In this document: piece by piece, positions 15,015 to 60,318 of the stretch | Position numbering within the stretch: the first letter of the stretch is position 1 | Layout of the letters: every line of letters starts with the position of its first letter | Origin: Patescibacteria group bacterium | Lineage (GTDB): Bacteria; Patescibacteriota; Microgenomatia; UBA12405 | DNA length: 64,000 nucleotides | Assembly: GCA_013387215.1 (NCBI GenBank) | Contig: WARW01000003.1 | Location: 10,227-74,226, forward strand | Direction of reading: 5' to 3' | Notes under the pieces: generated by a model | Seen by the model: only the letters and a program-made list of their open reading frames with translations | Told to the model about the DNA's origin: nothing | The model's database searches: none | Made by a program: the position numbers and the translations under genes

Positions 15015-15470
15015 TTAAAGGTTAAAAATAAGTTTAAAAGCAAGAGTGCTTAGGATTAATAAACTTAGCGGAAAAACAACCCGCTGATAATAAAAAAGAA
15101 CCTTACCGTGGTTGCGTTTTTTGGTGTAAAGATTAATAAAGTTTCCTAAGATTACTGCCACAAGACCTAGAGTTTCACCAAGAACAATTTTATCGATTCC
15201 CAAAATCGAATCCTTTCCACTGATTTGATTAGTAAAACTAAAATAGAACAATGTTAGTCCATATAATATTAAAGATAAAATTATGGGATTTCTTAAAATT
15301 CTATTTTTAAATTTAGAGGCCAAATAGAAAGCGATAACAGTATTAAGACCGCCGATCCAGATATTAATTAAAAGCGAATCAATGCCTAATTTTTCAGCTA
15401 AAATCATACCACCACCAACTGTAACTATACAAACTGGACATTGAGCATAAACTTCTTTGACTAAGAACAT
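15015..15470 (-). CDS. Small polytopic membrane protein with an N-terminal CPVC motif
   Basis: An internal ATG (MFLVKEVYAQCPVCIV...) avoids overlap with copA. It has four to five TM helices. Confidence 0.55.
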   Translation of the reverse strand: MFLVKEVYAQCPVCIVTVGGGMILAEKLGIDSLLINIWIGGLNTVIAFYLASKFKNRILRNPIILSLILYGLTLFYFSFTNQISGKDSILGIDKIVLGETLGLVAVILGNFINLYTKKRNHGKVLFYYQRVVFPLSLLILSTLAFKLIFNL

Positions 15471-15489
15471 AATAGTATATTTTAACTTA

Positions 15490-18400
15490 TTATTTTTGAT
15501 TGAACTTGTAATAATTGTCAGCAAACTGACGAGGCACAAAATGCATCATATCGAGGCTGGTTAAGTTCTTTTTGGGAAGTCCGGTAATAATAATATTACT
15601 GCCAAAAAAATTGTTTATAGTGTCAAACTTTTTTTGAAAAAGCTTTTCTTTTATCATCATTCGAGCCTCATCGTAGCCAACATAAGTGGATAAATATTTA
15701 GTGCCAGCTACTTCATAATTTGTTTTAAGCGGATCGATAATTGATAATAATTGCTGCGGAATATTGGTTTGGTCATACAAATATATTAGTTTCAAATCGC
15801 CAAGAGCAGTTTCGGTAACTAATATATCACTTTTAGCGGTTAGATTGGCAAAAGATTTTTGATTAAAGATGTGATATTCATCGATCAAAGTTCCAGTTGG
15901 GGCAAGAATACCAACAATTTTAATTTTTGGCAGTCCAAAAAAGTTGGGTATTTCAGAACCAACACCTTTAATTAGGCCTTCTTCAATCATCATACTGGCC
16001 TCTTTAGATCCTAAAATAACATTATTTTCTCCTGATAAATCAAAGTTGCCTGCAGATAATTTTAAAGAGGATGGCAGATTGTCGACTCCTAAAATTAATT
16101 TAGGATTATTTTTGACAAAACCAATTTTTGAAGGATTATTTTTTAAAAGCTCATTTATTTCGGTTTTTATGGATGGCCGAGATTGGATATAGGCAACTAG
16201 ACCAGAATTGGATTGGGCATCAGCTCCCATTTTTGAAGAAAAGCTGGCAAATTCAATAAAAATAAGTAAAAAGAATGAAATCATCACAAAAGGAGCCAAT
16301 TTTGATATCCAATTAAACTTCCCTGGTTTGAAAAATTTTAAGGTTAAAGAGTTAGCCACCACTGAAACCGAAGATAAAGCCATGGCCAGACCTGCAAGTT
16401 CAGGTTTAAGAATTAAACCAATCCCCATCAAAGCACGAGCAGCGATGGGAATTCCCAGAATATTATAAAAGAGAGCAAAGAACATATTTTGACGAATTTT
16501 ACCTACGGTTTGGCGAGAAAGATCTATGGCTGTCAGAACTCCATTTAAATCATTACTGATAATGACAATACTACCTGATTCCATGGCGATATCAGCACCA
16601 CTACCCATAGCAATACCAAGATCAGATTGAGTTAAAGCAGGGGCATCGTTGATACCATCGCCAACCATAGCCACTTTAAAACCAGAATCTTGAAGTTTTT
16701 TGACTTCCTCCGCTTTGTTTTGAGGTAAAACTTCAGCTAATACATTGGTAATACCAAGCTGTTTGGCAATTGCGTCAGCAGTACGGTGATTATCACCAGT
16801 GATCATATATACAGCAATGCCCATTTTTTTAAGTTTGGAAACAACAGCAACTGAAGTTTCTTTAAGTTGATCGGCTACAGCAATTAATCCTAAAACTTTT
16901 TCTTTATTGGCGATAAGCATGGCAGTTTTACCATCATTCTCAAGCCTCTCCATATCATAAGAAGAAGTTAAGGGAATTTGATTCGCTTCCAATAGTTTAC
17001 GATTACCAACATAATAGGTTTGACCATTGACTACTGCTTTAACACCAGACCCAGGGATGGCCTGAAAATCTTCAATCGCATAGTTGATTGCCCCACAAGA
17101 TTGGCTATAACGAACAATCGATTCAGCCAAAGGATGTTCAGATTTTTGTTCGATTGAGTATAGAATTGAAAGAATTGTCTGATCACCTGGAAGATAGTTA
17201 ATAAAATCAGTTACTTCAGGTTTACCTTTAGTGAGAGTGCCAGTTTTATCAAAGACAATAGCTTCCAAATTTTGGGCCATTTCCAGCGGTTCGCCACCTT
17301 TAATTAAAACTCCATATTCAGCACCTTTACCAGTTCCAACCATAATAGAGGTAGGAGTGGCCAAACCAAGAGCACAAGGACATGCAATAACGATAACTGC
17401 CACAAAAGCTAATAAGGCGAAAGTTAAAGAAGACCCAAGCAAAAAGTACCAAATTACAAAAGTAAGGACGGCGATACTAATTACAGCTGGTACAAAAATT
17501 GAGGAAATCTTATCGGCAAAACCTTGAATTGGAGCTTTTGAACCTTGAGCATCTTCAATTAATTTGACGATTTGAGACAAAGCAGTGTCGGCACCAATTT
17601 TAGTGGTTTTAAACTCAAAAGAACCAGTCTTATTGATTGAAGCGGTATAAACTTTTGATCCAATTTGTTTTTCAACTGGTAATGATTCGCCAGTTAGAAT
17701 AGATTCATCAACAGCCGAGTAACCAGAAACTACTTCCCCATCCACAGGAATTCTTTCGCCAGGGCGAACAACAACAGTGTCGCCTACCATTACCTGTTCA
17801 ACAGGAATATCCACTGGTTGGCCATTTTTTAGAATACGAGCAGTTTTTGGGGCCAACCCCATTAATTTTTCAATAGCCTCAGAGGTCTTTCCTTTAGCTT
17901 TAGCTTCGAGCCATTTACCTAATGATACAAAAGTGATTAAGAAGGCGGCGACCTCAAAATAAAGATTGGGGATTTTGGAACCATTTAAGCCAATAAATGA
18001 ACCAGTTTCACTAAAATAATTAAAAAATTCAAATATGCTGTAAAAATAGGCTGTACTTGTGCCTATAGCAACTAAAGAATCCATGGAAAAAGTACGCATT
18101 TTTAAGGCTGACCAAAACCCAGCAAAAAAATTAGAACCAACGTAAAAAAGAACCGGAGTGGCTAATAATAAAGAGATCAATCCGGCGTATGGCATGACGA
18201 TGCTTTTAAATGGAACAGTATTGGTAAAATCGTAGACCATGAATAGAATCATGGGGATGCTTAGGATTAAACCGGTGAAGAATTTTGAAAACCAATATTT
18301 TATTTCCTGTTTTCTTTTTTCGTGCTGATTTTCTGTTTTTTCGTTAGGAAGCGAGGCTTTATAACCAGCTGCTTCAATGCTTTTAATCAAATCATCGATT

Positions 18401-18582
18401 TTGGCTGAACTAGGACTGTATACAACTCTGGCTTTTTCAGTGGCAAAATTAACATTAACCTCATTAACACCATTAACTTTTTTTAAAGACCGCTCGATAA
18501 GACCAGCGCAGCTGCTACAATGCATGCCAGTAATATCCAAATTTACGGCAATATTTTTTGTAGATGGGTTTTGATTTTCCAT
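15490..18582 (-). CDS. copA: Copper-translocating P1B-type ATPase with an extra TM helix and a ~270-aa C-terminal extracytoplasmic extension
   Basis: [22 protein letters not shown] ([12 protein letters not shown]), DKTGTLT and GDGINDAP. The canonical end is ...[11 protein letters not shown], followed by the helix [20 protein letters not shown] and about 270 more residues (1030 aa total). Confidence 0.9.
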
Positions 18583-18584
18583 AT

Positions 18585-18803
18585 TTATAGAAGCTGGGCT
18601 GTATAGCCAGAATTTTTTATAATTTTTATTAAATCTTCTGAATTAAGTTTGTCAGAATCAAATTCAACAGTAACTAGTTTTGTTTCTAAATTAGCATCAA
18701 CAGAAATAACACCATTAGTATCTTCTAAGTCCATTTGAATTAATTTTGGACAGGAAGGACAATGCATGTCGGAAACTTTAAATGTATTTTTTTGATTAGT
18801 CAT
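18585..18803 (-). CDS. copZ: Copper chaperone (HMA domain)
   Basis: 72 aa, [14 protein letters not shown] (MxCxxC). Confidence 0.85.
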
Positions 18804-18811
18804 GTTGGTTT

Positions 18812-19222
18812 TTAATTAATAACTTCAAAAGTACCCGTGTACATGCCCATGGTGCAACTGAAACGATAGGTTCCAGGTGCAACTGGAGTAAATTCTTTTG
18901 TAACTTGAGAGTTAGGGATAAGATCAATTCGGTCTGAGAAAAGCCCGTGAGAAACAATACTTCCAGCGCAGCCAGCATTGCCAGATGAAGTAATTTGCCA
19001 AACCACTGGTATGTTGGCTTTAATTTTAAAATTGTTTGGAGAATAACCAGCAGCCGAAGCAGTCATCTTAACAATTTGTTTACCATCTACAACTTGAACT
19101 AAGTCAGGGCCAGAAGCTGCATTGGAAACAGAGGGGTGTTTTTGGCTAAATATGAAAAAACCAAAAACAACGATTAAAACTATCGAACCTAAAACATAAA
19201 ATAGATTAGAAATATTTTTCAT
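18812..19222 (-). CDS. Membrane-anchored cupredoxin-like domain protein
   Basis: N-terminal TM anchor, then a domain paralogous to the C-terminus of the upstream gene (GCAGSIV ... FSCTMGMYTGTFEV). Start moved to ATG at 19222. Confidence 0.65.
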   Translation of the reverse strand: MKNISNLFYVLGSIVLIVVFGFFIFSQKHPSVSNAASGPDLVQVVDGKQIVKMTASAAGYSPNNFKIKANIPVVWQITSSGNAGCAGSIVSHGLFSDRIDLIPNSQVTKEFTPVAPGTYRFSCTMGMYTGTFEVIN

Positions 19223-19230
19223 AGTTTTTA

Positions 19231-20694
19231 TTAATGATGACAACCACAACCTTTTGCACCAGATTCAATAATAGTTGGGGCTGCTCCAACAGAGTTGATA
19301 TTGCCTGATTTATCAAGCACTTCAAAAGTGCCCGTAACCATGCCCATCCAACAACTAAACCGATAAATTCCAGGAGTGTTGACAGTAAATTCTTTAACAC
19401 TGGTGGTTCCTGGAACTAAATCAATTTGACCGGAAAATAGTTGGCGGGAGATGATGGCATTAGTGCAACCACTAGTGCCCGTATCCTCTATTTCCCATTT
19501 AACAGGTATTCCAGCGCGAACTTTAAGTTTATTTGGAGCATATCCAGCAGATGAAGCTTTAATATGGATGATTTGCTTACCATCAATAATTGGAGGTAAG
19601 TCAGTGGCAATATTTTGAGATATGGTTTTAGGGGAAGTTAGAGATTCCAGATTAGAAACGCCTAAAACTGCCAATTGGGCATTTATATTAAAAAAGGCGA
19701 AGAATAAAACCAGAATTCCGGCAATTATAGAAAACTGCTGAGAAAATTTTGGATTAGAAAAAAGTTTAATACTGGTTAAGCCAATTGTGAGCAGGCCTGG
19801 TAGGGTGCCAATAGCAAATAAGCCCATGATTAAGGCACCTTGTATTGGATTACCAGAAGCTAATGCCAGTGCTTGGACTGTAATAGTAAAACCGCAAGGC
19901 AAGAAAAAGGTTAAAGCTCCCATAATTACCGGAGCAAATTTGCCAGTAAAATTAGACTCGTCTGAAAATCGGCGGGTTAAAGATTTGGGTAATTGAAGAC
20001 GAAATTTTTGCAGAGCTTTTATGCCAAGCATTTGTAAACCCAGAAGAATCATTAAGACAGATACAGCGATCACTAGGCTGGCTGAAAAAAGCGGCGTCAA
20101 TCTGAAGAAATTACCAATTTGGCCCAGAATGGCGCCAAAAGCAAGATAAGATAAAACCCGACCAGTATTAAACAAAAAGTGCGGTTGTAGTTTTTTGACG
20201 GTGGAATCGGAATTTGAATAAAGATTGTTCCATTGTTGAGACAAAGATAAAATAATACCGCCAACAAGAGCCGCGCAACTGGAAAAACCAGCGAGCAGAC
20301 CGAAAAGGAAAAACACAGGTAGAGAACTTTGTGCATTAACTGATATTAAAGAGGAAAATCCAGATTTACCTAATAAAATAAAAACTAAAATAAATAAAAG
20401 GCTAAAAAATAATGAAGAAAAAACATTGAGACGTTTTTTTTCTATTGGGCAAGAAACAGCTTTGGTGTTTTGTTTAGAAAATGGCTTGAGTGAAAACCGA
20501 TAGTTATCTTTTAAAAAGATATCGTTTAAATCTTTTAAAGATATTTTTATATTTCTTTTTGTTTCAAGAGATAAAGTTGACTTAGCTAAGGAAACCTCGG
20601 CTTTAACAACTCCTTGCTGCTTTAAAAGTTTCTTTTCGATTAGAATTTCACAAGAAGGACAATGCAGGCCAGAAATATAAAATAATTGTTTCAT
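19231..20694 (-). CDS. Triple fusion: HMA domain, CcdA/DsbD-like polytopic membrane domain and cupredoxin-like domain with a GCGCHH tail
   Basis: GLHCPSCEILIEKKL, then 6-7 TM helices containing FFLPCGFT, then the C-terminal domain GCTNAII ... FSCWMGMVTGTFEV, ending ...GAKGCGCHH. Start taken at ATG 20694 (MKQLFYISG). Confidence 0.7.
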   Translation of the reverse strand: MKQLFYISGLHCPSCEILIEKKLLKQQGVVKAEVSLAKSTLSLETKRNIKISLKDLNDIFLKDNYRFSLKPFSKQNTKAVSCPIEKKRLNVFSSLFFSLLFILVFILLGKSGFSSLISVNAQSSLPVFFLFGLLAGFSSCAALVGGIILSLSQQWNNLYSNSDSTVKKLQPHFLFNTGRVLSYLAFGAILGQIGNFFRLTPLFSASLVIAVSVLMILLGLQMLGIKALQKFRLQLPKSLTRRFSDESNFTGKFAPVIMGALTFFLPCGFTITVQALALASGNPIQGALIMGLFAIGTLPGLLTIGLTSIKLFSNPKFSQQFSIIAGILVLFFAFFNINAQLAVLGVSNLESLTSPKTISQNIATDLPPIIDGKQIIHIKASSAGYAPNKLKVRAGIPVKWEIEDTGTSGCTNAIISRQLFSGQIDLVPGTTSVKEFTVNTPGIYRFSCWMGMVTGTFEVLDKSGNINSVGAAPTIIESGAKGCGCHH

Positions 20695-20710
20695 ACTACG
20701 TAGTGTAGTA
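20694..20710. promoter_or_regulatory. 17-nt dyad-containing motif TACTACGTAGTGTAGTA abutting the start codon of the HMA-CcdA-cupredoxin gene
   Basis: 15 of 17 nt are identical to the motif at 21986-22002. It contains the perfect palindrome ACTACGTAGT and occupies the 23-nt gap after the BlaR1-like gene. Confidence 0.45.
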
Positions 20711-20717
20711 GATGTTT

Positions 20718-21626
20718 TCATTCTTTGCAATGGTCTGATAAAGAGATGTTTTGGTGAGAGAATAAAACTTCGACACATTTGACCAAATGGTTGCATTGAT
20801 AGAAAATTGTAGATTTACCAATAAAGGTAGTAGTAAACAAAATGAGAACCAATAAAAATGAATTTAGGGTAAAGAAGTTTTTGAAATTAGGCTTCTTTTT
20901 ATCAACTAAAACCGAAACGCGTTCATGAAATTCAGAAAAATTATTGAGATAAAAATTATTTCTTGTGTCAGGTTCTTCTATTTTTAACAGAGCAGAAACC
21001 AATGGTGTTTTTGATTTCAATTGAGTTTGGGCATAATTATCACAATTTATTTCTACCAATGCAGAATAATTTTTGAATATCCAGACTTTCTTTGGGAAAG
21101 AAGGTAAAAAGTGGTTGATTAAATCAACAATAAAATCTTTTAAAGGGTCAAAATTAAATTGATGTTTTTGTTCATGAAAAATAATCGCTTCCAATTCTTT
21201 TGGATTAACGGTTTTAATTAATTTTTCCGATATATAGATTTGAGGATTTAAAAAACCTGAAGTAAAGGCAATGACTTCTTTAATTTTGATCAAGTTATAC
21301 TGATTTTGTCTTTTTGATTTAAGGTTGTTTAAAAATTTTTTAGTTAAAAATATTTTATTAAAAGAATAATCGAGAGATTTAAAGAAGCGAAGTAAAAGAA
21401 TAAATAATATTATTCCGGATAAAACATTTATATAAAATGTCGAAGAAATAATTAAGGGAATTAAATTTTGATGATTATTTTTTAGGGCATCTATTAAAAA
21501 TATCAACTGCATCGAAAATCCAGAGAATATCTTTAAAAAGGCGAGTGATAAAAAGGATATGTAAAGAATTCCTAAAGTTAGGATGAATAAAAAAGCTAGA
21601 TTTCTTTGAAAACTGATTTTAGTCAT
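20718..21626 (-). CDS. BlaR1/MecR1-type M56 membrane metallopeptidase (signal-transducer-like)
   Basis: Polytopic N-terminus, HExxH (FHEQKHQ), and an 8-nt overlap with the upstream BlaI/CopY-type repressor gene. Confidence 0.7.
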   Translation of the reverse strand: MTKISFQRNLAFLFILTLGILYISFLSLAFLKIFSGFSMQLIFLIDALKNNHQNLIPLIISSTFYINVLSGIILFILLLRFFKSLDYSFNKIFLTKKFLNNLKSKRQNQYNLIKIKEVIAFTSGFLNPQIYISEKLIKTVNPKELEAIIFHEQKHQFNFDPLKDFIVDLINHFLPSFPKKVWIFKNYSALVEINCDNYAQTQLKSKTPLVSALLKIEEPDTRNNFYLNNFSEFHERVSVLVDKKKPNFKNFFTLNSFLLVLILFTTTFIGKSTIFYQCNHLVKCVEVLFSHQNISLSDHCKE

Positions 21627-21984
21627 TATTTTTCAAATATTCTTTTAATAACTCAATATCATTTTTATTGTTTTTAATAGTATCGACAAATTGGGAAATA
21701 GCCAACTTACCATATGAACCGACCAAATTGCCGTAAATTCCAGACAGATTAGATTCGATAAACTGATCTTTATTTAAAATGGGAGTATAAAAATAAACTT
21801 TACCTTCTAGTTTTCTTTTGACTATTTTTTTATCTGACATTCGCTTGAGAACAGTCATAATTGTGGTGTAGGCCTGATCCCCTTTTAGACTCACTAGAAC
21901 TTCGGCAGGTTTTAAAGGACGGTTGGACTGCCAAAGGATATCCATTATCTTCTGTTCTAATTCACCAAGCATTTGGGTTTTCAT
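21619..21984 (-). CDS. BlaI/MecI/CopY-family winged-helix repressor
   Basis: 121 aa. LGELEQKIMDILW ... YTTIMTVLKRMSDKKIVKR pattern, typical of the Penicillinase_R family. Confidence 0.8.
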   Translation of the reverse strand: MKTQMLGELEQKIMDILWQSNRPLKPAEVLVSLKGDQAYTTIMTVLKRMSDKKIVKRKLEGKVYFYTPILNKDQFIESNLSGIYGNLVGSYGKLAISQFVDTIKNNKNDIELLKEYLKNND

Positions 21985-21985
21985 A

Positions 21986-22002
21986 TACTACTTAGTGTAG
22001 CA
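21986..22002. promoter_or_regulatory. 17-nt motif TACTACTTAGTGTAGCA immediately upstream of the repressor start codon (candidate operator)
   Basis: Outer dyad CTAC-N5-GTAG. It is a near-identical copy of the motif at 20694-20710. Confidence 0.45.
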
Positions 22003-22031: not shown

Positions 22032-23420
22032 TTATTGCTTACATTGACCATTGTAGACTGGTGAACAACCAAGTTGGCTGTCGGTTCGCTGGCCAGAAGT
22101 GTCGTCAATATGTTTACGAAGCACTTGTTCTAGCTCATACCCTTTTTGAGGAATGGTGGAGATTAAATTGTTTTGCTCTTTAGGATCGTCATTTAGGTTA
22201 TAAAGCTCTTTGTTGCCGTTTTCTAAAGTTAAAATAAATTTCCAGCCATCTGGAGTCTGATAGGACCTTTTAAATGTATAAAGTCGATAATCAGTTTCAC
22301 TAAATACACTGTGGGCGACAGATTTACCATCAAAAACCGGAGTAAGATCAGCACCTTTTGTCTGTTCAGGAACAGGGTTTTTTATTCCCAATAAATCAAG
22401 CGCAGTTGGAACTATATCGAGAGTGCTTACTAGTTCATTAATTCTTTGGCCTTTGGTTTGGCCTGGTTTGTGAATAGCAAACAAAACATCAACTAGTTCA
22501 CCATAAAGAGTGTGGCCATGATCAAAACGATTATGTTCGTAGAATTCAGTGCCATGATCACTCATAACGATAATAATTGTATTATCCAAAAGTTTCATGT
22601 TGTTGATCTGATCCATAAAGTTTTTGAATTCAGCATCGGTACGATTAATCTTTTCATCATAAATAGCCCGCCAAAAAGCCACATCTTCGGGTGATAGATT
22701 TAAACTTTTACCAGCTAAACCGTCTTCACGAAGTTGACCTTGTTCGGTTGGACTGCCAGTATATTTGCCGTTATATGGCTTTGAAACATAGCGATAATCA
22801 AAACCACCGGCTGGTGCATGCTGCCCGTGAACATCATAGCCATGAAGGAAAAGGAAAAACTGCTTGTTTTTATTCTGCTTTAACCAGTCAACTGCTCTTG
22901 GTATGCTGCCATCGAAACCACCGAAGGTGCCAGTGGGTTCATAATAAGTATCAAAACCTTGACTAAAACCAAACTGCGGCCCAACTCCAGCATCGCCAGT
23001 AAAACCGCCAGTAACAAAACCTTGTTTTTTAAGAATTTCAGCAAGGGTCATGGCATTCGGAGAAAGTTTTTTTAAATTAGAAATAGTTCCCTTTTGGGCT
23101 TTCATATCGTAATCACTAAATTTGTTGACAACTTTATGTTCGGATGGATACATAGAAGTAAAGACAGACATGTGGGTTGGCACTGTCCAAGATGACGGAC
23201 TGACAGTATTGGTAAATAAAGTTGACTTATCAATAAAAGAATCTAAATTGGGAGTCGTGTTCAAAGAATAGCCATATTCATGCAAATGCTTGGCCTGCAA
23301 GCCATCGATCGAAACAAGAATAAGATTATATTTTTTATGAAATAGTTTTGGAGAAATCTTTATTGCAGCAACGGTTAGTAAGCTTAGAACAATGACACCA
23401 ATAAGAAATTTAATTTTCAT
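22032..23420 (-). CDS. Sulfatase-fold (alkaline-phosphatase superfamily) ectoenzyme, Thr-nucleophile type, divergent seventh paralogue
   Basis: N-terminal anchor, SIDGLQAKHL, TVPTHMSVFTSMYP (Thr at the position of the sulfatase Cys/Ser) and SDHGTEFYEH. Confidence 0.75.
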   Translation of the reverse strand: MKIKFLIGVIVLSLLTVAAIKISPKLFHKKYNLILVSIDGLQAKHLHEYGYSLNTTPNLDSFIDKSTLFTNTVSPSSWTVPTHMSVFTSMYPSEHKVVNKFSDYDMKAQKGTISNLKKLSPNAMTLAEILKKQGFVTGGFTGDAGVGPQFGFSQGFDTYYEPTGTFGGFDGSIPRAVDWLKQNKNKQFFLFLHGYDVHGQHAPAGGFDYRYVSKPYNGKYTGSPTEQGQLREDGLAGKSLNLSPEDVAFWRAIYDEKINRTDAEFKNFMDQINNMKLLDNTIIIVMSDHGTEFYEHNRFDHGHTLYGELVDVLFAIHKPGQTKGQRINELVSTLDIVPTALDLLGIKNPVPEQTKGADLTPVFDGKSVAHSVFSETDYRLYTFKRSYQTPDGWKFILTLENGNKELYNLNDDPKEQNNLISTIPQKGYELEQVLRKHIDDTSGQRTDSQLGCSPVYNGQCKQ

Positions 23421-23493
23421 ATCAAGTAAATCAAATTATATAAATGATATAAGTGTTATATTAAATTTATCTTTTAAAAGCAATAGACCGTAA

Positions 23494-25023
23494 ATGCGAT
23501 TGGGTAAAAAAATATTTATATTTGGTTTGCTGGGATTGATGATAATTGGGAGCGGTTTTTTGATTATTAAAAAAGTATCAAAAAAAACCTGCGATAAATG
23601 CAACATAATGCTTATCGATGTTGATATTTTGAGAGCAGATGAACTTCCCTGCTATGGATATCCCCGAAACACAATGCCAAACATTTGTGAATTTGCCAAA
23701 AAATCAGTAAGTTTTAAAGATAATTATTCGACTTCATATTGGACACTACCAAGTATTTTTTCAGTAATTACTTCACTATATCCAACTTTTCATCAAATGC
23801 AGGTTAATTATATGTTTGCACTGTCGTCTAGAATTCCGACTTTAGCAGAAACTTTACATAAGCAAGGATATAAGACTGTTTATGTGGGACAAAAAGACGA
23901 TTTAATGTCTAGTTATAATGGCGGTTTCCGCGGTTATGATTTAGTAACTCAAGAACCAATTGAAAAAGTAATTGATGAACTTTCAAAAAGTTCTCAACCA
24001 TGGTTTATACATAGGTATATCAGTGAATTGCATATGCCCTATTTATTGCCAGATAATTTAAAACCTGTGGAAGATTTGCCGGTTCCAAAAAATTTACCAA
24101 CTACTTATTACACTTTCGATTTATTTTTTAATAAATATTTAAAAGAACATTACAAAGAAATATTTAAACAGAAAGCAATCGATGAATATAGAGCAATTAT
24201 TTTAGGACCAGATAAGGCAGATGATATTAGTGTGACCAATCTTTTTGATAAATTGAGAGCTGACGATAAAACCATAAATGAATATTTATTAGATGCCTGG
24301 AGACCGAGATTAGATTTTTATTTAAAATCGTTTGACGGAAAAAATCCCCAAGATGTGGCTTATTTAAGAATGATGTATGACACTAAACTAAAATATCTTG
24401 ATGAAAAACTAAAACCTCTTTTACAAAGACTAGACTCGAGTTCATTGTCAAAAAACACTATTACAGTGATTATGTCGGATCATGGTGAAGCATTTGGCGA
24501 GCACGGAACGTTTTCACATGAGGATAATCATTTCACTGAACTATTTTACACTCCTTTAATAATCAGGGCTCCTCAATTTGAAGCAAAACAAGTTGAACAA
24601 ACCACAAATATAGTGGATATATTTCCGACTATTTTAGATTTAACAGGTGAGAAAAAAATTGATATGCATCAAGGGCAATCATTAGTACCTTATATGAATG
24701 GCCAAACTAAAAACGATACTACATTCAGCTTGAGCCAATCAATAGAAGGAACGCTTTTACAAAATAAGAATTGGCTGTACTTTTTACCAAACAGCGCTAA
24801 AGATATGAATGAATCAGAACTCTATAATAAAACCATCGACCCCCTGGAAAAAGTGAATGTGACTGGACAGAATCAAGATTTAGTTAAAACACTTTTTAAA
24901 AAAGCTGATTTATTCCGCTCATACGGAGGGATTGATTATGAAAAAGAAGAAATACCGTTGCCAAACCGGATGAAGTTGGACCCAGATAAAATAGAACGCC
25001 TTAAAAAAGAAGGATATTTTTAA
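23494..25023 (+). CDS. Sulfatase-fold ectoenzyme paralogue 1 (Thr-nucleophile type)
   Basis: TM anchor, CDKCNIMLIDVDILRADELPCYGY...PNIC, SYWTLPSIFSVITSLYPTFH, SDHGEAFGEHG and the tail ERLKKEGYF. Confidence 0.8.
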   Translation: MRLGKKIFIFGLLGLMIIGSGFLIIKKVSKKTCDKCNIMLIDVDILRADELPCYGYPRNTMPNICEFAKKSVSFKDNYSTSYWTLPSIFSVITSLYPTFHQMQVNYMFALSSRIPTLAETLHKQGYKTVYVGQKDDLMSSYNGGFRGYDLVTQEPIEKVIDELSKSSQPWFIHRYISELHMPYLLPDNLKPVEDLPVPKNLPTTYYTFDLFFNKYLKEHYKEIFKQKAIDEYRAIILGPDKADDISVTNLFDKLRADDKTINEYLLDAWRPRLDFYLKSFDGKNPQDVAYLRMMYDTKLKYLDEKLKPLLQRLDSSSLSKNTITVIMSDHGEAFGEHGTFSHEDNHFTELFYTPLIIRAPQFEAKQVEQTTNIVDIFPTILDLTGEKKIDMHQGQSLVPYMNGQTKNDTTFSLSQSIEGTLLQNKNWLYFLPNSAKDMNESELYNKTIDPLEKVNVTGQNQDLVKTLFKKADLFRSYGGIDYEKEEIPLPNRMKLDPDKIERLKKEGYF

Positions 25024-25068
25024 TAGGTGGTATATTAAACTGATAATTAAAAGTAATAGGCTGTTTTA

Positions 25069-26613
25069 ATGCTCAAAAGAAAATATCAAAAAATTATAAT
25101 CGGAGCGGGATTTATTTTGTTGATTATATTTGGGCTAATAGGACTTTTTAAACGAACAAACAAATTGCCATTTAAAGCCTGTACCAACTGCAACATTATA
25201 TTAATTGATATTGATATTTTAAGAGCTGATGAATTGCCTTGCTACGGATATTCCCGAAATACCACCCCAAACATTTGTAATTTTGCGAAAAAGGGTATGA
25301 TTTTTAATGACAACTATTCTCCATCCTATTGGACTATGCCTAGTATGTTTTCCACAATAACGTCTCTTTATCCAACTTTCCACCGAATCCAAATGAATTA
25401 CACTGAAGCTTTGTCGCCTAAAATTCCAACCCTTGCAGAAACTTTACACAAACAAGGCTACCGAACAATCTATATTGGCCCGGAAGACGACATGTTAAAA
25501 CACAATAATGGCGGCTTACGCGGTTATGATTTAGTGACTCAAGAACCGATTGAAAAAGTGGTAAGCGAATTGTCGAAAAGTTCTCAACCATGGTTTGTGC
25601 ATTACTATAATAGTGATTTGCATGCCCCATATTTATTTAATGAAAAACCTCAATTGATTGATAATCTTCCCGCCCCTAAAAATTTTCCAATTACTTATTT
25701 AGATTTCAGTATTCTTCTAAATAAATATTTAAAAGAACATTACAAAGAAATATTCAAACAGAAAGCTATCGATGAATATAGAGCAATTATTTTAGGACCA
25801 GATAAAGCAGATGATATTAGTGTAACTACTCTTTTTAACAATATTAGAGGCGATAAGAAAATAATGAATGATTATTTATTTGATGCCTGGGTGCCAATAT
25901 TAAACACTTATCTTGGTTCTTTTGATAAAAATAATGCCGATAATGTGGCATATTTACGCATGATATATGATACTAAACTTAAGATAATAGACGATAAGTT
26001 GGGAGCGCTTTTTCAAGAGTTGGATTCAGAAGCACTATCTAAAAACACCATAACAGCAATTTCGTCAGACCACGGAGAAGCGTTTGGAGAACATGGAACT
26101 TTTTCACATGAGGTTAACCATTTCACTGAACTATATTACACACCTTTAATAATCAAGGCTCCACAATTTTCAGGAAAAATAATTAATGAAACCAGCAGCA
26201 ACATTGATATTTTCCCGACTTTTTTAGACTTAACCGGCAGCGAAAAAATTAATAATCAGCAAGGCAAATCACTAGTTTCTTATATGAATAATGAAAATAA
26301 AAGTTTAGAGGGCTTTAGTGTCAGTGAATGTTCGGAAGGAATATTGCTGCAAAATAAAAAATGGTTGTATTTTTTATCAAATGAGGTTTCAGAATTTAAT
26401 AAATCGGAACTTTACGACAGGAAAAATGATCCATTAGAAAAAAATAATGTGGTTGGAAAGAATCCAGAATTAGCTAGATCACTTTACCGACAGGCTGATT
26501 TGTTCCGATCCTATGGCAAAATTGAATATAAAAAAGAAGAGATACCAATTAGTGAGCAAATTAAGTTGGATCCAGAAAAGATCGAACGTCTTAAAAAAGA
26601 AGGCTATTTTTAA
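25069..26613 (+). CDS. Sulfatase-fold ectoenzyme paralogue 2
   Basis: Same motif set as paralogue 1 (CTNCNI, SYWTMPS, SDHGEAFGEHG, ERLKKEGYF). Confidence 0.8.
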   Translation: MLKRKYQKIIIGAGFILLIIFGLIGLFKRTNKLPFKACTNCNIILIDIDILRADELPCYGYSRNTTPNICNFAKKGMIFNDNYSPSYWTMPSMFSTITSLYPTFHRIQMNYTEALSPKIPTLAETLHKQGYRTIYIGPEDDMLKHNNGGLRGYDLVTQEPIEKVVSELSKSSQPWFVHYYNSDLHAPYLFNEKPQLIDNLPAPKNFPITYLDFSILLNKYLKEHYKEIFKQKAIDEYRAIILGPDKADDISVTTLFNNIRGDKKIMNDYLFDAWVPILNTYLGSFDKNNADNVAYLRMIYDTKLKIIDDKLGALFQELDSEALSKNTITAISSDHGEAFGEHGTFSHEVNHFTELYYTPLIIKAPQFSGKIINETSSNIDIFPTFLDLTGSEKINNQQGKSLVSYMNNENKSLEGFSVSECSEGILLQNKKWLYFLSNEVSEFNKSELYDRKNDPLEKNNVVGKNPELARSLYRQADLFRSYGKIEYKKEEIPISEQIKLDPEKIERLKKEGYF

Positions 26614-26654
26614 TTAGGTTAATATATAAATAATATATTGAATAAATAAATTAC

Positions 26655-28196
26655 ATGAAGATTCTTTTTTTTAGAGAAAAAAAATACCGCAAGATTATTG
26701 TGTTAGTTGGTATAGCATTAATAATTGGGTTAGTACTTGCATGGAAAAGATTGCCTGAAAAAAAGTGTGAACACTGCAATATTGTAATGGTAGATATTGA
26801 TGTCTTAAGAGCTGATGAGTTGCCTTGTTATGGATATTCCCGAAACACCACTCCCAATATTTGCCAGTTTGCCAAAAAGGCGACTATTTTTAAAGATAAT
26901 TATTCGACTTCATATTGGACTTTACCTAGTATGTTTTCAACAATTACCTCTATGCTACCCACCTTTCATAAGGTGAGAACTGAATTTATCAACAAACTGT
27001 CCCCTGATACAAAAACACTAGCCGAAGTTTTACATAGCCAGGGATATCGAACAGTATATATTGGCGACGGCCAGAATCCTGCTTTATTAACCAAAGATAA
27101 CGGAGGCTTGAGAGGTTACGATATTGTGACAAAAGAACCGATCGAAAAAGTAATTGCAGATCTTTCAAAAAGCTCACAGCCATGGTTTATCCACTATTAT
27201 TTAGTTGATTTACATATGCCTTATTTATTACCAGAAAATGTGAAACCAATGGAAGATCTGCCAGCTCCAAAAAATTTGCCAATAAACCAAACCGATTTTG
27301 ACCGCATGTTAAATACCTATTTAAAAAAGCACTATAAACAAATATTTAATGAAAAAGCGATTGGAAAATACGGCTCGGTTATTTTAGCTCCAGATAAAGC
27401 AGATGATACCAGTGTGACTAAACTTTTCAACGATTTAAGATGGACTAGTAAAAGCATGACTGAATATTTTATTGACAGCTGGAAGCCTATTTTTAATTCA
27501 TATATGGATTCATTTGATAAGAATAATCCCAATGATGTGGCATATATTAGAATGATGTACGATACAAAATTAAAACTGGCTGACGAGCAACTACAATCTC
27601 TTTTTATAAAATTAGAGACAAAACCATTTTCTGAAAATACGATCTCGATAATTATGTCAGATCATGGAGAAGCGTTTGGAGAACATGGAACTTTTTCCCA
27701 TGACAATAATAGTTATACGGAACTTTATCACACGCCGTTAATAATTCGGGCACCTGGACTGCCTGCTAAAATTGTGGACCAAACTTCAAGCAACCTAGAT
27801 ATTTTTCCAACAGTTTTAGACTTAAATGAAATAAAAAAATTAGACAGTTTTCAGGGAAAATCATTAGTGGACAGTGTCAATAAAAAAACAGAAACTAAAT
27901 CATTTAGTCTAAGCGAATATTCTGATGGTGTAATTTTACAAAACCATGACTGGCTGTATTTCTTACCATTTTGGGTTGATAAGTTTGAAAACTCAATGTT
28001 GTTTGATAGAAATAAAGATCCTAAGGAAAAAAATAATGCAGCAAAACAGAATTTAGAGTTAACTCACTTTCTTTATAAACAAGCTGATTTATTGAGATCT
28101 TATAATGGAATTATTTATAAGCCAGAGGAAATTCCAAGCGATATTAAATTAAATCCTGAAAAAATAGAGCGTCTTAAAAAAGAAGGCTATTTTTAA
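26655..28196 (+). CDS. Sulfatase-fold ectoenzyme paralogue 3
   Basis: CEHCNI, SYWTLPS, SDHGEAFGEHG, ERLKKEGYF. Confidence 0.8.
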   Translation: MKILFFREKKYRKIIVLVGIALIIGLVLAWKRLPEKKCEHCNIVMVDIDVLRADELPCYGYSRNTTPNICQFAKKATIFKDNYSTSYWTLPSMFSTITSMLPTFHKVRTEFINKLSPDTKTLAEVLHSQGYRTVYIGDGQNPALLTKDNGGLRGYDIVTKEPIEKVIADLSKSSQPWFIHYYLVDLHMPYLLPENVKPMEDLPAPKNLPINQTDFDRMLNTYLKKHYKQIFNEKAIGKYGSVILAPDKADDTSVTKLFNDLRWTSKSMTEYFIDSWKPIFNSYMDSFDKNNPNDVAYIRMMYDTKLKLADEQLQSLFIKLETKPFSENTISIIMSDHGEAFGEHGTFSHDNNSYTELYHTPLIIRAPGLPAKIVDQTSSNLDIFPTVLDLNEIKKLDSFQGKSLVDSVNKKTETKSFSLSEYSDGVILQNHDWLYFLPFWVDKFENSMLFDRNKDPKEKNNAAKQNLELTHFLYKQADLLRSYNGIIYKPEEIPSDIKLNPEKIERLKKEGYF

Positions 28197-28209
28197 ATAA
28201 ATTTGAAAG

Positions 28210-29727
28210 ATGGATAAAAAAATAAGAAATGTTTTATTGGTTTTGTTAATTTTTGTCGTGGGAACGGCAGTATTTGCATTAATAAAGACTAGGACAAAGA
28301 AAACCTGTGATCATTGCAATATTGTGATAATGGATATTGATATTTTAAGAGCTGATGAATTGCCCTGTTACGGATATTCCAGAAATACGACCCCAAATAT
28401 TTGCCAGTTTGCCAAAAAGGCAACTGTTTTTAAGGATAATTATTCAACTTCTGTTTTAACACTACCAGATATGTTTTCGATAATTACATCTCTTTATCCA
28501 ACTTTTCACCATGTGAACACAGCAACAATCGATAAACTTTCAGCAAACATCCCTACTTTGACTGAGATATTGAAAAAAGAAGGCTACAGGACAGTTTTTA
28601 TTGGAGATAGTGAATATTCTGGAACAATAAATAATCAAAACAATGGGCTAAGAGGCTTTGATATGGTGACACAAGAACCGATTGAAAAGGTAATGGAAGA
28701 ATTATCAAAAAGTTCTCAACCATGGTTTATATATTATTACTCAGGCGACTTACATATGCCTTATTTACTGCCGAAAAACACAAAACCGATGGAAAATATG
28801 CCGGCTCCAAAAAACTTACCGATAAACCAAACTGATTTTGATAAACGGTTAAATATTTATTTAAAAAATCACTACAAAGAGGTTTTTAATAAAAAAGCCA
28901 TTAAAGAATATTCTTCAATAATATTATCGCCAGATAAACCAGCAACTGAACTGTTTTATTCCTTAAAAAGTGACAATGAAAAGATGAAAGAATACTTAAT
29001 CGATGTGTGGAAACCTGAGTTTAACGTGTATATGGAATCATTTGATCAAAATAATTCTTCAGAGGTAAGTTATGTCCGAATGATTTATGATACAAAGTTA
29101 AATTTAGTTGATAATAAACTTGAAAAGGTGCTTAAAAAACTGGACACAAAAGAATCAATAAAAAATACGATTACTTTAATTTCATCAAACCACGGAGAAA
29201 GCTTTGGAGAACATGGAAATTTTTCCCATAATTTTAGTCCTCACTCAGAACTTTATTACACTCCATTAATAATTAAAGCGCCACAACTTAAGGCAAAACA
29301 AATCCAAAATACTTCAAGTAATATGGATATCCTACCCACAATTTTGGATTTAACTGGAATAAAAAAGTTAGACAGTTTTCAAGGAAACTCATTGATCGCT
29401 AGTATTAATCAAAAAGAAAACTTAGAAAATTTTGCCATGAGTGAATATTGGGGAAATATAATTTTACAAAATAAAAAATGGCTATATTTTTTACCAGCAG
29501 AAGCTAAATACATTGAGCAATCAATGCTTTTTAATAAAGAGAATGATAAAGATGAAAATACCAATGTGTCGATGCAAAATACAGAACTAGTAAAGATGCT
29601 TTACAAAAGGGCGGATTTGCTACGTTCTTATAGTGGAATTAATTATAAAATAGAAACTATTCCTACTAATGAAATAAAAATAGATCCTGAAAAAATTAAG
29701 AGGATTCAAAAAGAAGGATATTTTTAA
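28210..29727 (+). CDS. Sulfatase-fold ectoenzyme paralogue 4 (variant metal-ligand motif SNHGE)
   Basis: CDHCNI, SVLTLPD, SSNHGESFGEHG (Asn where the other copies have Asp) and KRIQKEGYF. Confidence 0.75.
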   Translation: MDKKIRNVLLVLLIFVVGTAVFALIKTRTKKTCDHCNIVIMDIDILRADELPCYGYSRNTTPNICQFAKKATVFKDNYSTSVLTLPDMFSIITSLYPTFHHVNTATIDKLSANIPTLTEILKKEGYRTVFIGDSEYSGTINNQNNGLRGFDMVTQEPIEKVMEELSKSSQPWFIYYYSGDLHMPYLLPKNTKPMENMPAPKNLPINQTDFDKRLNIYLKNHYKEVFNKKAIKEYSSIILSPDKPATELFYSLKSDNEKMKEYLIDVWKPEFNVYMESFDQNNSSEVSYVRMIYDTKLNLVDNKLEKVLKKLDTKESIKNTITLISSNHGESFGEHGNFSHNFSPHSELYYTPLIIKAPQLKAKQIQNTSSNMDILPTILDLTGIKKLDSFQGNSLIASINQKENLENFAMSEYWGNIILQNKKWLYFLPAEAKYIEQSMLFNKENDKDENTNVSMQNTELVKMLYKRADLLRSYSGINYKIETIPTNEIKIDPEKIKRIQKEGYF

Positions 29728-31292
29728 TGAAAGGCTTTTTAAGTAGAAAAAAACTTTTGTTGCTAGCATTATTGATTTTATTGTCGATAGTAATTGGTTT
29801 TGGATCGTGGACTTTTTATAAAAAAACAGAAAATAAGTCCGAAAAAAAGTGCGAGAATTGCAACATAATGCTTATTGATATTGATATTTTAAGAGGTGAT
29901 GAATTATCCTGTTTGGGATATTCCCGAAATACCACCCCAAACATTTGTGAATTTGCCAAAAATGGAGCTGTTTTTAAGGATAATTATTCGACTTCATATT
30001 GGACTCTTCCAAGTATATTTTCAACCATGACTTCTTTGTATCCGACTTTTCATGGGATGCAAAATGCAGGCAAGGATATTCTCTCTCCAAACATTACAAC
30101 TTTGGCTGAGGTGTTACATAAAAAAGGATATATGACGGTTATGGTAAACGGAAATAAAGATACAATGCAAATGCTGTTTGGCGATAATGAGGGTTTGAGA
30201 GGCTTTGAAATGGTTACAGCTGATCCGGTTGAAAAAGTTATAGATGACTTATCAAAAGACAATAGACCTTGGTTTATTTATTACTATAACTCAGAGCTGC
30301 ACTTTCCATATTTATTGCCAGAAAACACAAAACCGATGGAAGATTTGCCAGCTCCAAAAAATTTACCAATAAACCAAACTGATTTTGATACTTTACTAAA
30401 TAAATATTTAAAGACTCATTATACAGAAATATTTAAGCCAAAGATAATTGATAAGTACGGTTCGATTATTTTAGGGTCAAATAAAGAAGATGATATGGGT
30501 ATGGTGAAAATGTTTAATACTTTAAAAGCGGATCCTTCAAAAGTAAGCGAATATTTTATTAATGACTGGAATGCAAATTACCAAACTTACATGGAGTCGT
30601 TTGATCAAAATAATCCATCTGACGTTAAATATGTGCGAATGCTTTACGATACAAAATTAAAATTACTTGATAATAAAATGGGAAGTGTTTTACAAAAATT
30701 AAATTCGAAACAGCTTTCAGAAAATACAATCACAGTTATTACTTCAGACCATGGAGAAAATTTTGGAGAACATGGTTTTTTTACCCATATTGCCGATTTT
30801 CATTCCGAAGTGTTTTATATTCCATTAATTATTAAATCACCCAACATTTTACCGACAACAATCGAGCAAACAACAAGTAATATTGACATATTCCCTACTC
30901 TTTTAGATTTAACTGGCATCAATAGCCCGGGCGGACTACAAGGGATTTCTTTAGTTCCGTATATTAATAATCAGCACACAGAAAAACAATCATTTGCTAT
31001 GAGTGAATATTGGGGAAATGTGATTTTAGAGAATCATGATTGGCTGTATTTTTTACCTAAAGATGAGCAAGGTGTAGTCAAACCCACGTTCTATGACAGA
31101 ATTAAAGATCCGGCAGAAAAAGAAAATGTCATAGATAAATATCCTGAGATGGTAAATTCCCTTTATAAACAAGCCAGCCTGCTTCGCTCTTATAATGTTT
31201 TCTATGAAAATAAACCAATAGTAAAACCTGATGTAATCAAAAACATTGATAAAGTAAAATTAGATCGATTAAGGAAAGAAGGTTATTTTTAA
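29727..31292 (+). CDS. Sulfatase-fold ectoenzyme paralogue 5
   Basis: CENCNI, SYWTLPS, SDHGENFGEHG, DRLRKEGYF. Its start codon overlaps the stop of paralogue 4 (TAATG). Confidence 0.8.
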   Translation: MKGFLSRKKLLLLALLILLSIVIGFGSWTFYKKTENKSEKKCENCNIMLIDIDILRGDELSCLGYSRNTTPNICEFAKNGAVFKDNYSTSYWTLPSIFSTMTSLYPTFHGMQNAGKDILSPNITTLAEVLHKKGYMTVMVNGNKDTMQMLFGDNEGLRGFEMVTADPVEKVIDDLSKDNRPWFIYYYNSELHFPYLLPENTKPMEDLPAPKNLPINQTDFDTLLNKYLKTHYTEIFKPKIIDKYGSIILGSNKEDDMGMVKMFNTLKADPSKVSEYFINDWNANYQTYMESFDQNNPSDVKYVRMLYDTKLKLLDNKMGSVLQKLNSKQLSENTITVITSDHGENFGEHGFFTHIADFHSEVFYIPLIIKSPNILPTTIEQTTSNIDIFPTLLDLTGINSPGGLQGISLVPYINNQHTEKQSFAMSEYWGNVILENHDWLYFLPKDEQGVVKPTFYDRIKDPAEKENVIDKYPEMVNSLYKQASLLRSYNVFYENKPIVKPDVIKNIDKVKLDRLRKEGYF

Positions 31293-31298
31293 AAACAG

Positions 31299-32831: not shown

Positions 32832-32838
32832 AAAATAA

Positions 32839-59978: not shown

Positions 59979-60318
59979 TAATATACATTTGATATATTCC
60001 CCTAGCTAAAATAATGACGTTTTTACAACGTGAAAACCCCTAAAATCAGTACTGTGCTGACATTTTTTTGATAGAAAATTTTTTCTTTTCAAGATTCCCC
60101 TCTCGGAACCAGGTTCGATTTTGAAAAATACCATCTGAACTCGTTTGTATTTACATTAAAAATACTTACATATATCTATAATCACGTCATTACATTTTTT
60201 CACGTTACTCCTTATAATTAATTAGCTTGGTTATGACTATTTTTGGCAAGTAATAACCGCATAATAACCGATTTATTACCGTAAGAAAATAGTAAACATT
60301 TAAACTAAAATAAGTAGT

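Follow-up and report, generated by a model that had tools for sequence, protein, structure and literature searches.

To our knowledge, the cyanobacterial pair PetR/PetP is the sole system in which copper control has been shown to run through proteolysis of a BlaI-type regulator. Proteolytic copper control by a BlaI/BlaR1-type pair is in itself already known from that system (PetRP, 2021). Here, we analyzed a 64,000-nucleotide (nt) stretch of DNA from a Patescibacteria group bacterium (the window; contig WARW01000003.1, positions 10,227 to 74,226), in which the genes for a BlaI/MecI/CopY-type repressor and a membrane metalloprotease head a copper operon and a 17-nt dyad is found at two start codons. 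On the sequence evidence, the dyad is most likely the binding site of the repressor, which lacks Cys, and covers the -10 box and start of two leaderless promoters.

The BlaR1/MecR1 cleavage site in BlaI of Staphylococcus aureus is Asn101-Phe102, with Phe102 following the cut point. We take the sequence ACTAC-AAAT-GTAGT upstream of mecA to be the MecI operator. It was obtained, as ATACTACAAATGTAGTCT, from a published primer (PMC7424258). In Synechocystis sp. PCC 6803, PetP degrades PetR only with copper present (Garcia-Canas et al., bioRxiv 10.1101/2020.07.31.226407; commentary PMC7896320). PetP has been described as an M48/M56 protease with membrane segments at residues 4-21, 28-50, 65-87 and 256-278 and a cytoplasmic domain at 88-256; the core site of PetR is GAC-N5-GTC (GACA-N3-TGTC), and PetRP controls the swap between plastocyanin and cytochrome c6, comprising four genes, with PetR also acting as an activator (bioRxiv 10.1101/2020.07.31.226407). 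The CopY/CopR/TcrY repressors of Firmicutes recognize the cop box KACANNTGTA (RNYKACANNTGTMRNY; O'Brien et al. 2020, PMC7253601).

Two dyads at the start codons of a copper operon

The whole copper operon lies on the minus strand, in the order repressor, protease, HMA-CcdA-cupredoxin fusion, cupredoxin, CopZ, CopA and CPVC protein. The original prediction had placed two near-identical motifs at its start codons, and both their sequence and their positions proved correct: on the plus strand they read TACTACTTAGTGTAGCA (21986-22002) and TACTACGTAGTGTAGTA (20694-20710), with 15 of 17 positions identical. In the orientation of the genes, site 1 is TGCTAC-ACTAA-GTAGTA-t-ATG (22002-21986) and site 2 is TACTAC-ACTAC-GTAGTA-TG (20710-20694). 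The candidate operator O1 (TGCTAC-ACTAA-GTAGTA; 21986..22002, minus strand) lies over the -10 box of promoter P1, and a single nucleotide (21985) separates it from the repressor ATG (21984-21982), the 1-nt distance that had been noted. The candidate operator O2 (TACTAC-ACTAC-GTAGTA; 20694..20710, minus strand) lies in the gap between the protease stop codon (20718-20720) and the ATG of the HMA-CcdA-cupredoxin gene (20694-20692), which is 23 nt long, as claimed. Its final A is the A of this ATG; the reported overlap with the start codon is therefore real, but it involves the first base of the codon in gene orientation and not the last.

Both sites contain a CTAC-N5-GTAG dyad, as had been stated, and this pattern occurs nowhere else in the window (0.16 expected). 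Exact matches to TACTACNTAGTGTAG were likewise confined to sites 1 and 2, and a search allowing up to two mismatches returned three matches, compared with 0.12 expected; none of 100 shuffles reached three. For TACTAC-N5-GTAGTA with up to two mismatches, we obtained six matches against 1.03 expected, and only sites 1 and 2 had zero or one mismatch. Rather than recurring at many unrelated positions, which had been named as the outcome that would count against an operator, the motif has two good copies in the window. A weak third match, at 60303-60319 on the plus strand (TAAAAT-aagtagt-ATG), precedes a gene (60319-63372) for a 1017-amino-acid DUF4012 protein; because only the right arm is present there, the match is probably a coincidence, and we treated it as such. 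Site 2 also holds the perfect palindrome ACTACGTAGT described earlier, which arises because its spacer happens to be ACTAC; the palindrome is peculiar to the window and is not kept in related loci.

The dyads coincide with predicted leaderless promoters

As a leaderless sigma-70 start we counted a -10 hexamer 6-9 nt before the start codon, accompanied by a properly spaced -35 box or a TGn extension and by no Shine-Dalgarno (SD) motif. P1 (21994..22002, minus strand) has an extended -10 element, consisting of TG (22002-22001), c and TACACT (21999-21994), with the ATG 9 nt downstream (TGcTACACT-N9-ATG). P2 (20702..20730, minus strand) reads TTGCAA-N17-TACACT-N7-ATG; its -35 box (20725-20730) falls within the final codons of the protease gene, and the -10 box occupies 20702-20707. 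The corresponding arrangement in relatives is TTGACA-N17-TACAMT-N7/9-ATG. As the ATG follows the -10 box by 7-9 nt, we infer that both promoters start transcription on the start codon or no more than 2 nt from it: the P2 transcript is predicted to be leaderless, and the P1 transcript to be leaderless or to carry a 2-nt leader. The TGC that replaces TAC in the left arm of site 1 creates the extended -10 element (TGn), and the sites lacking TTGACA (window site 1, L004_s1 and L009_s1) all have TGC at this position. A promoter scanner did not list P1 or P2, both of which score 8/12, under its threshold. We also considered TAGTAT as a -10 box with a start further downstream; we dropped it because the start would fall inside the HMA-CcdA-cupredoxin gene, whose N-terminus MKQLFYISGLHCPSC is needed, and because TTGACA sits 17 nt from TACAMT in relatives.

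An SD-like motif, sought in positions -18 to -4 of 52 long open reading frames, preceded only one of the 52 window genes (background 9.7%), and TANNNT ended 5-10 nt before the start in 28 of 52 (background 15.6%), as in ggTATAATtagtgaATG at 55469 and gTATAATacttgtATG at 36954. By these counts, the genome appears to be essentially SD-free and rich in leaderless starts. In this organism promoters generally adjoin start codons, which explains the position of the dyad. The lack of a visible SD motif, remarked on before, holds at these genes but is not a special feature of them. Our literature search on leaderless translation in Patescibacteria returned no relevant paper.

The position of the dyads had also suggested a post-transcriptional role. 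As RNA they do fold, with energies of -8.4 and -13.3 kcal/mol (z = -3.2 and -3.5, respectively), and a hairpin at the start codon might control translation or stability, for example on P1 read-through into the copper genes. The TGC variant of the left arm would still pair through G-U, and we found no terminator between the protease gene and the HMA-CcdA-cupredoxin gene, so read-through RNA containing site 2 probably exists. However, every DNA dyad folds as RNA, and because the -10 hexamer lies inside the dyad, the P1 and P2 transcripts begin after it and lack it. The sequence of the arms is invariant, with no sign of compensatory changes, and single left-arm mismatches have no compensating partner. 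The constant 17-nt distance of TTGACA is a feature of the DNA, the spacing to the start codon varies, and the absence of SD motifs extends across the window. For these reasons we rejected a post-transcriptional role; control by RNA structure is highly improbable, and a hairpin on read-through RNA from P1 may have a minor role.

The dyad is conserved at related loci and tied to one regulon

We compared 79 loci encoding relatives of the repressor, the closest of which are mostly labelled Shapirobacteria, Collierbacteria or other Patescibacteria. O1 was kept at the position of the repressor ATG in L001-L009, L039, L042 and L049, and O2 before the orthologous HMA-CcdA-cupredoxin gene in L002-L009 and L019. 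The gene order repressor, protease, HMA-CcdA-cupredoxin, (sometimes cupredoxin), CopZ, CopA was kept in L002-L010. With at most one mismatch, the dyad occurred 26 times in 14 protease-linked loci (171,570 nt), almost always preceding the repressor gene or the first copper gene; extra dyads were located before a cupredoxin gene (L002:3267) and before genes resembling the HMA-CcdA-cupredoxin (HCC) gene (L040:10236, L043:10251).

Alignment of 26 sites from related Patescibacteria loci gave the consensus TTGACA-N17-(TAC/TGC)TACA(C/A)T-NN-GTAGTA. The -10 hexamer, TACACT or TACAAT, is made up of the inner half of the left arm and the first spacer bases, and most sites have a perfect TTGACA 17 nt upstream of it, including the orthologous O2 sites (TTGACA-N17-TACACT-N7-ATG). 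The right arm GTAGTA is unchanged in 24 of the 26 sites, and the two bases before it vary freely. In more distant relatives the TTGACA-dyad unit stands 15-30 nt or more from the start codon (15-30 nt in L040, L042 and L043); a shared unit at varying distance from the ATG indicates a promoter plus an operator rather than a translation element. Both operators of L010 (933-3589) have a 4-nt spacer (TACTAC-ACTC-ATAGTA and TACTAC-AATC-GTAGTA), a concerted change that would be expected if one protein reads both.

Could the conserved sequence be nothing but a strong leaderless promoter or initiation context, with incidental symmetry and no repressor site? TACACT/TACAAT is plausible as a -10 box, leaderless promoters are common in the window, and the unrelated DUF4012 gene at 60319 has a similar right arm before its ATG. 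However, apart from that gene, GTAGT is absent at the other roughly 26 -10-proximal starts of the window. Downstream of the -10 box promoters are usually free of constraint, yet the right arm stands there unchanged, which argues for a dimeric protein site rather than a promoter alone; it is the mirror image of the left arm, one half of which precedes the -10 box (upstream TAC, downstream GTAGTA), and both are kept although the center varies. The dyad is also retained where the ATG is 15-30 nt away, its occurrence is confined to genes beside this repressor family, and its arms equal those of the mecA-upstream sequence ACTAC-AAAT-GTAGT (PMC7424258). A promoter without an operator is therefore very unlikely.

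A scan of metagenome contigs for TACTACAMTNNGTAGTA yielded at least 124 sites in at least 120 stretches. Among the matches listed, 17 sites have a perfect TTGACA placed 16-18 nt before the -10 box, and 11 of them precede an HMA-CcdA-cupredoxin, DsbA-like or CPVC gene; of the 107 sites without this -35 box, about 5 do (Fisher p = 2.5e-8). Most bare dyads are chance matches in unrelated DNA, as is to be expected of 15 specified bases in a very large collection. The sites with a -35 box are tied to regulon genes and thus mark the dyad as the promoter-operator module of one regulon. We ruled out a generic repeat on the basis of this positional association in related loci and the rarity of the motif in the window. 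Together, the sequence comparisons support the view that the dyad behaves as a conserved BlaI/CopY-type operator belonging specifically to the copper regulon.

At protease-linked loci of more distant relatives, the gene under the dyad promoter encodes a DsbA-like thioredoxin with a membrane anchor (PF13462/PF01323). Such targets occur in L011, L012, L016, L039 and L040, where they are the genes after the protease, and in L085, L088, L097, L111, L128, L157, L159, L189 and L190. A DsbB/VKOR gene adjoins the repressor-protease pair in L011, and the surroundings in L039 and L040 include L,D-transpeptidase and sortase genes. This gene content suggests that the regulon is wider in distant relatives and serves both envelope thiol stress and copper stress.

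Several records in the comparison set (L003, L013, L015, L017, L026, L027, L035, L039, L040, L042 and L043) are titled 'uncultured Gammaproteobacteria', and others 'Methanoperedens' or 'Aquificales'. These mislabelled-looking records of metagenome-assembled genomes carry the same AT-rich, leaderless, Patescibacteria-type copper loci, and their organism labels look unreliable.

A repressor without Cys or His

The repressor gene (21619..21984, minus strand) encodes a winged-helix protein of 121 amino acids, with a match to Pfam PF03965 over residues 6-118 (82.2 bits; cut-off 22.6). Its sequence matches in the PDB were BlaI of M. tuberculosis (2g9w), BlaI (1sd4) and MecI (1okr). It contains no Cys and no His, and thus cannot sense copper itself; the earlier observation that a C-terminal CxC motif is missing was borne out, as there is no Cys anywhere in the protein. 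Against the NCBIfam equivalog model CopY_TcrY (TIGR02698) it scored 45.5 bits (cut-off 121.95), matching positions 6-116 of the 130 in the model and ending before the Cys-rich C-terminus. Judged by these profile scores, the repressor is a member of the BlaI/MecI/CopY family and not a CopY/TcrY equivalog. Phe99 (21688-21690) is invariant in 34 homologues and aligns with Phe102 of BlaI (query ...isqFvdt... over BlaI ...vlnFakn... in the HMMER alignment).

The MKT start of the repressor is kept in homologues. We rejected Met5 (the second ATG), the start used in the 117-amino-acid database entry P0001, because homologues begin with MKT or MKS and have Leu at position 5. The database names 'BlaI/MecI/CopY family regulator' and 'M56 family metallopeptidase' were already present for the pair.

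A membrane metalloprotease with a conserved Cys/His tail

The protease gene (20718..21626, minus strand) encodes 302 amino acids and overlaps the repressor gene by 8 nt (21619-21626); the overlap is 4 nt in related loci. The proposed coupling of the repressor to an M56-type protein was thus upheld, the partner being an HExxH membrane protease. The HEQKH motif (residues 151-155; 21162-21176) and Glu192 are invariant in the protease alignment and form the HExxH plus Glu pattern of gluzincins. The protein passed the Pfam M48 threshold (PF01435; 31.0 vs 20.3). Hydrophobic segments occur at about residues 10-28, 30-48, 64-82 and 251-275. The flanks of the catalytic domain are strongly basic (7 and 5 Lys/Arg), which places this domain in the cytoplasm, so the 30-residue C-terminal tail should lie outside the membrane. 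Structure modelling predicted a BlaR1-like fold for the membrane and protease module. A Pfam scan detected no penicillin-binding (class D beta-lactamase-like) domain, and the protein ends 30 residues past the last helix.

The tail beyond the last membrane helix (20721..20813, minus strand) is predicted to be extracytoplasmic and is a candidate copper or thiol sensor. It reads FYQ-C-N-H-LVK-C ... D-H-C, comprising C278-x-H280-x3-C284 (20775-20795) and D298-H299-C300 (20727-20735). The CxHx3C motif is present in all close homologues, whether from the compared loci or from databases. Among the best 67 full-length cluster representatives, 45 have CxHx2-4C, and a further Cys follows downstream in 42 of 46 motif-bearing proteases.

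Repressors with a Cys4 motif as a natural control

None of the repressors followed by a protease (18 Patescibacteria loci and the window) has an N-terminal Cys4 motif, and a protease never follows the approximately 29 Patescibacteria repressors that carry N-terminal MxCxCxCxxKC. This exclusive pattern argues that the protease stands in for a repressor-borne metal site. The Cys4 repressors adjoin the same HMA-CcdA-cupredoxin, CopA and CPVC genes. On contigs L001, L003, L006 and L007 the two kinds of repressor lie a few kilobases (kb) apart, the second (Cys4) gene being at L001 2841-3104, L003 1663-2019, L006 5308-5664 and L007 2530-2886. In L013-L038 the Cys4 cluster is N-terminal, often accompanied by His, and takes the place of the C-terminal CxCx4CxC of CopY. 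These repressors are 45-59% identical to the window repressor and resemble it in having leaderless promoters with a dyad over the -10 box; they differ in carrying MxCxCxCxxKC, in lacking the C-terminal LLKxYL segment and in having no protease. Where dyads are present at Cys4 loci, as they are at many of them, they have the cop-box spacing CTACA-NN-TGTAG, unlike those of the window. N-terminal Cys4 repressors of Patescibacteria were not described in the literature we searched.

These loci bear on whether the window repressor might sense copper without the protease, either directly or through delivery by CopZ as in CopY, the protease then being an unrelated housekeeping enzyme. CopY_TcrY is the best NCBIfam score of the repressor, and the operon encodes a CopZ. 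Yet that score is far under its cut-off and the matched region does not extend into the Cys-rich end of the model, a repressor with neither Cys nor His offers no ligands of this kind, the repressor and protease genes overlap and strictly co-occur, and the relatives without a protease have acquired a Cys4 motif. We give this possibility very little credence. For a protease-dependent signal, we tentatively suggest, while holding the idea to be rather doubtful, that the CxHx3C...(D)HC tail is a minimal sensor of copper (or of copper-driven thiol oxidation), and that Patescibacteria use two interchangeable designs for one copper regulon, with sensing either in trans, through a membrane protease that destroys a Cys-free repressor, or in cis, through an N-terminal Cys4 cluster of the repressor.

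Comparison with PetR/PetP, BlaI/BlaR1 and CopY

By analogy, the window system would work like PetR/PetP and, more remotely, like BlaI/BlaR1; the comparison with PetP rests on its published description. Both systems pair a BlaI/CopY-family regulator lacking the Cys motif of CopY with an adjacent, co-directional protease gene that overlaps the regulator stop codon, here by 8 nt. Both proteases have three N-terminal membrane segments, a cytoplasmic HExxH domain (at residue 151 here) and one more segment, at nearly equal positions, and lack a beta-lactam sensor domain. A Phe is kept at the BlaI cleavage position, and the regulon is copper-related. The operators have the same spacing and symmetry, with the half-site TAC/GTA here and GAC/GTC in PetR. 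In contrast to PetR/PetP, the window system belongs to Patescibacteria, its operators sit on leaderless promoters, its regulon comprises copper-export and envelope thiol genes, and only repression is indicated. The proposed ligands of PetP, Met53 and Met58 in the loop that joins transmembrane segments 2 and 3, have no counterpart, and the conserved CxHx3C...HC tail is found instead.

With the S. aureus BlaI/BlaR1 and MecI/MecR1 systems, the locus shares an autoregulated repressor-protease pair, a PF03965 winged helix, the Phe aligned with Phe102 and operator arms ACTAC/GTAGT like those upstream of mecA, although the spacer is 5 nt rather than 4. It differs from them in the absence of a penicillin-binding sensor domain, in a signal other than a beta-lactam, in a regulon that serves copper homeostasis, and in its layout, the genes being co-directional with the repressor first, not divergent from the target.

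CopY/CopR/TcrY repressors belong to the same protein family, repress a copZ-copA type operon, and act through two operators per operon with TACA/TGTA-like half-sites over the promoter. By contrast, the window repressor lacks the C-terminal CxCx4CxC (a Zn(II)/Cu(I) site), the sensor appears to be outsourced to the protease, and the two operators lie 1.3 kb apart on two promoters, compared with 24-39 bp on one. The window sites, TACA-CTA-AGTA and TACA-CTA-CGTA, are not cop boxes, as they have three central bases instead of two; the core in relatives is TACA-(C/A)TN-TGTA. The expectation that CopY and BlaI repressors bind TACA/TGTA dyads therefore holds as a family trait, but the sites here have one extra central base (TACA-N3-nGTA) and a PetR-like spacing.

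A model for copper-dependent derepression

In the model that we propose, P1 (TGn-TACACT) would drive the repressor and protease genes, making the pair autoregulated, and P2 would drive the genes for HMA-CcdA-cupredoxin, cupredoxin, CopZ and CopA, and probably that for the CPVC membrane protein. At low copper, repressor dimers on O1 and O2 would cover roughly -15 to +2 and exclude RNA polymerase. The co-translated membrane protease would be the sensor, reading copper or copper-driven thiol oxidation outside the membrane, most likely through the CxHx3C...HC tail, which is located where BlaR1 has its penicillin-binding domain. Its cytoplasmic HExxH domain would then cleave the repressor near Phe99, in the dimerization region; dimerization and DNA binding would be lost, and both promoters would be derepressed. 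As in the bla and mec systems, autoregulation would replenish both proteins. We assign a probability of roughly 0.62 to this model as a whole, that is, O1 and O2 as operators, P1 and P2 as leaderless promoters, and the protease relaying a copper signal to the repressor. In the original interpretation, the operator, the Cys-free repressor and the coupling to a protease stand, whereas the post-transcriptional role does not.

Several observations weigh against this model. P1 lacks a recognizable -35 box, and 9 nt separate its -10 box from the ATG. The protease does not reach the Pfam M56 threshold (PF05569; 27.3 vs gathering 31); a PDB sequence search with it returned nothing, and a profile of seven homologues did not recover BlaR1 among PDB sequences. 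The predicted fold is moderately similar to BlaR1 (template modelling score 0.42), and the predicted local distance difference test (pLDDT) value drops from 78 to 44 over the last approximately 30 residues, that is, in the tail. Cys residues in an extracytoplasmic tail could equally form a structural disulfide. The loop at about residues 49-63 of the protease (KNNHQNLIPLIISST) contains no Met and is poorly conserved; with the proposed Met ligands of PetP absent, the sensing step of PetP cannot simply be transferred. Finally, in distant relatives the first regulated gene is DsbA-like, or DsbB/VKOR lies beside the pair, so the primary signal may be envelope thiol oxidation and not copper binding.

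This last point leads to an alternative with the same operator and protease relay, in which the signal is extracytoplasmic thiol oxidation (disulfide stress, which copper can catalyze) and the Cys pair of the tail forms an activating disulfide. Consistent with it, the distant protease-linked loci drive DsbA-like thioredoxins, DsbA-like genes are the commonest targets of the specific metagenome sites (8 of 11, among the matches listed), and the first regulated gene of the window contains a CcdA/DsbD thiol-disulfide transporter. Against it, CopZ, CopA and cupredoxins dominate the regulon in the window and its closest relatives, protease-free repressors carry a Cys4 motif typical of metal binding, the His within the Cys pair and the terminal HC of the tail suit a metal site, and PetP responds to copper. 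We consider thiol oxidation as the signal to be unlikely, yet deserving of serious attention. The assignment to copper in the preferred model is based on the regulon (CopZ, cupredoxins and CopA), the alternative Cys4 repressors and the copper-dependent degradation by PetP. Proteolytic copper control is, by this analogy, plausible.

Other gene products of the operon and its surroundings

The HMA-CcdA-cupredoxin gene (19231..20694, minus strand; PF00403, PF13386 and PF13473) encodes an unusual three-part fusion of 487 amino acids, with a cytoplasmic HMA domain, a CcdA/DsbD_2-type thiol-disulfide transporter and an extracytoplasmic cupredoxin-like domain. Both transporter Cys residues are present (SSCAAL and LPCGF), and the C-terminus is GCGCHH. 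The fusion is kept across the clade (synteny in L002-L010) and is the first gene under the internal promoter. It is followed on the minus strand by a membrane-anchored cupredoxin-like protein of 136 amino acids (18812..19222; PF13473), a CopZ-like HMA copper chaperone of 72 amino acids (18585..18803; PF00403, 60 bits) and the P1B-type ATPase CopA of 1030 amino acids (15490..18582; Pfam E1-E2_ATPase, Hydrolase and HMA). The CopA translation carries the motifs CPC, YNx4P and MxxSS, the signature of Cu(I) P1B-1 ATPases. CopA also has a C-terminal extension of about 290 amino acids past the ATPase core (15493-16365, minus strand), which matched nothing in Pfam; CopA genes about as long are found in L002, L004, L006, L007 and L019 and not in L005, L009 and L010.

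The conserved membrane protein with a CPVC motif (15015..15539, minus strand, likely start 15470) is probably encoded by the last gene of the operon and accompanies cop genes in related loci. It matched no Pfam or NCBIfam family. Proteins of this kind have about 150-174 amino acids with an N-terminal CPVC; their genes directly follow Cys4 repressor genes in L014, L029 and L030, and in L164 the orthologue is directly preceded by its own TTGACA-dyad promoter. Directly upstream of the operon lies a sulfatase gene (22032-23420, minus strand). It is one of eight paralogous sulfatase/alkaline-phosphatase-superfamily genes at 22032-34227, the other seven being on the plus strand.

Implications

The points that appear to be new are the link between such a pair and a Patescibacteria copper-export operon, the two-promoter leaderless layout with an operator in the -10 box, the candidate sensor formed by the conserved Cys/His tail, and the exclusive alternation with Cys4 repressors. 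In the literature searched, we found no paper describing these points, nor one describing BlaR1-like proteins beside copA. They would extend the PetRP design to a classical copper-export operon in bacteria of the candidate phyla radiation. Motifs abutting the ATG in such genomes need a different reading, since promoters lie on start codons and SD motifs are absent. As the organisms are uncultured, the value of the locus is mainly comparative, and for heterologous reconstitution; a natural control is offered by the sister repressors, which have lost the protease and acquired a Cys4 cluster. If the tail is indeed such a sensor, it would provide a concrete candidate, open to mutation, for how PetP-type proteases sense copper, and external copper would be read by regulated proteolysis in bacteria with very small genomes.

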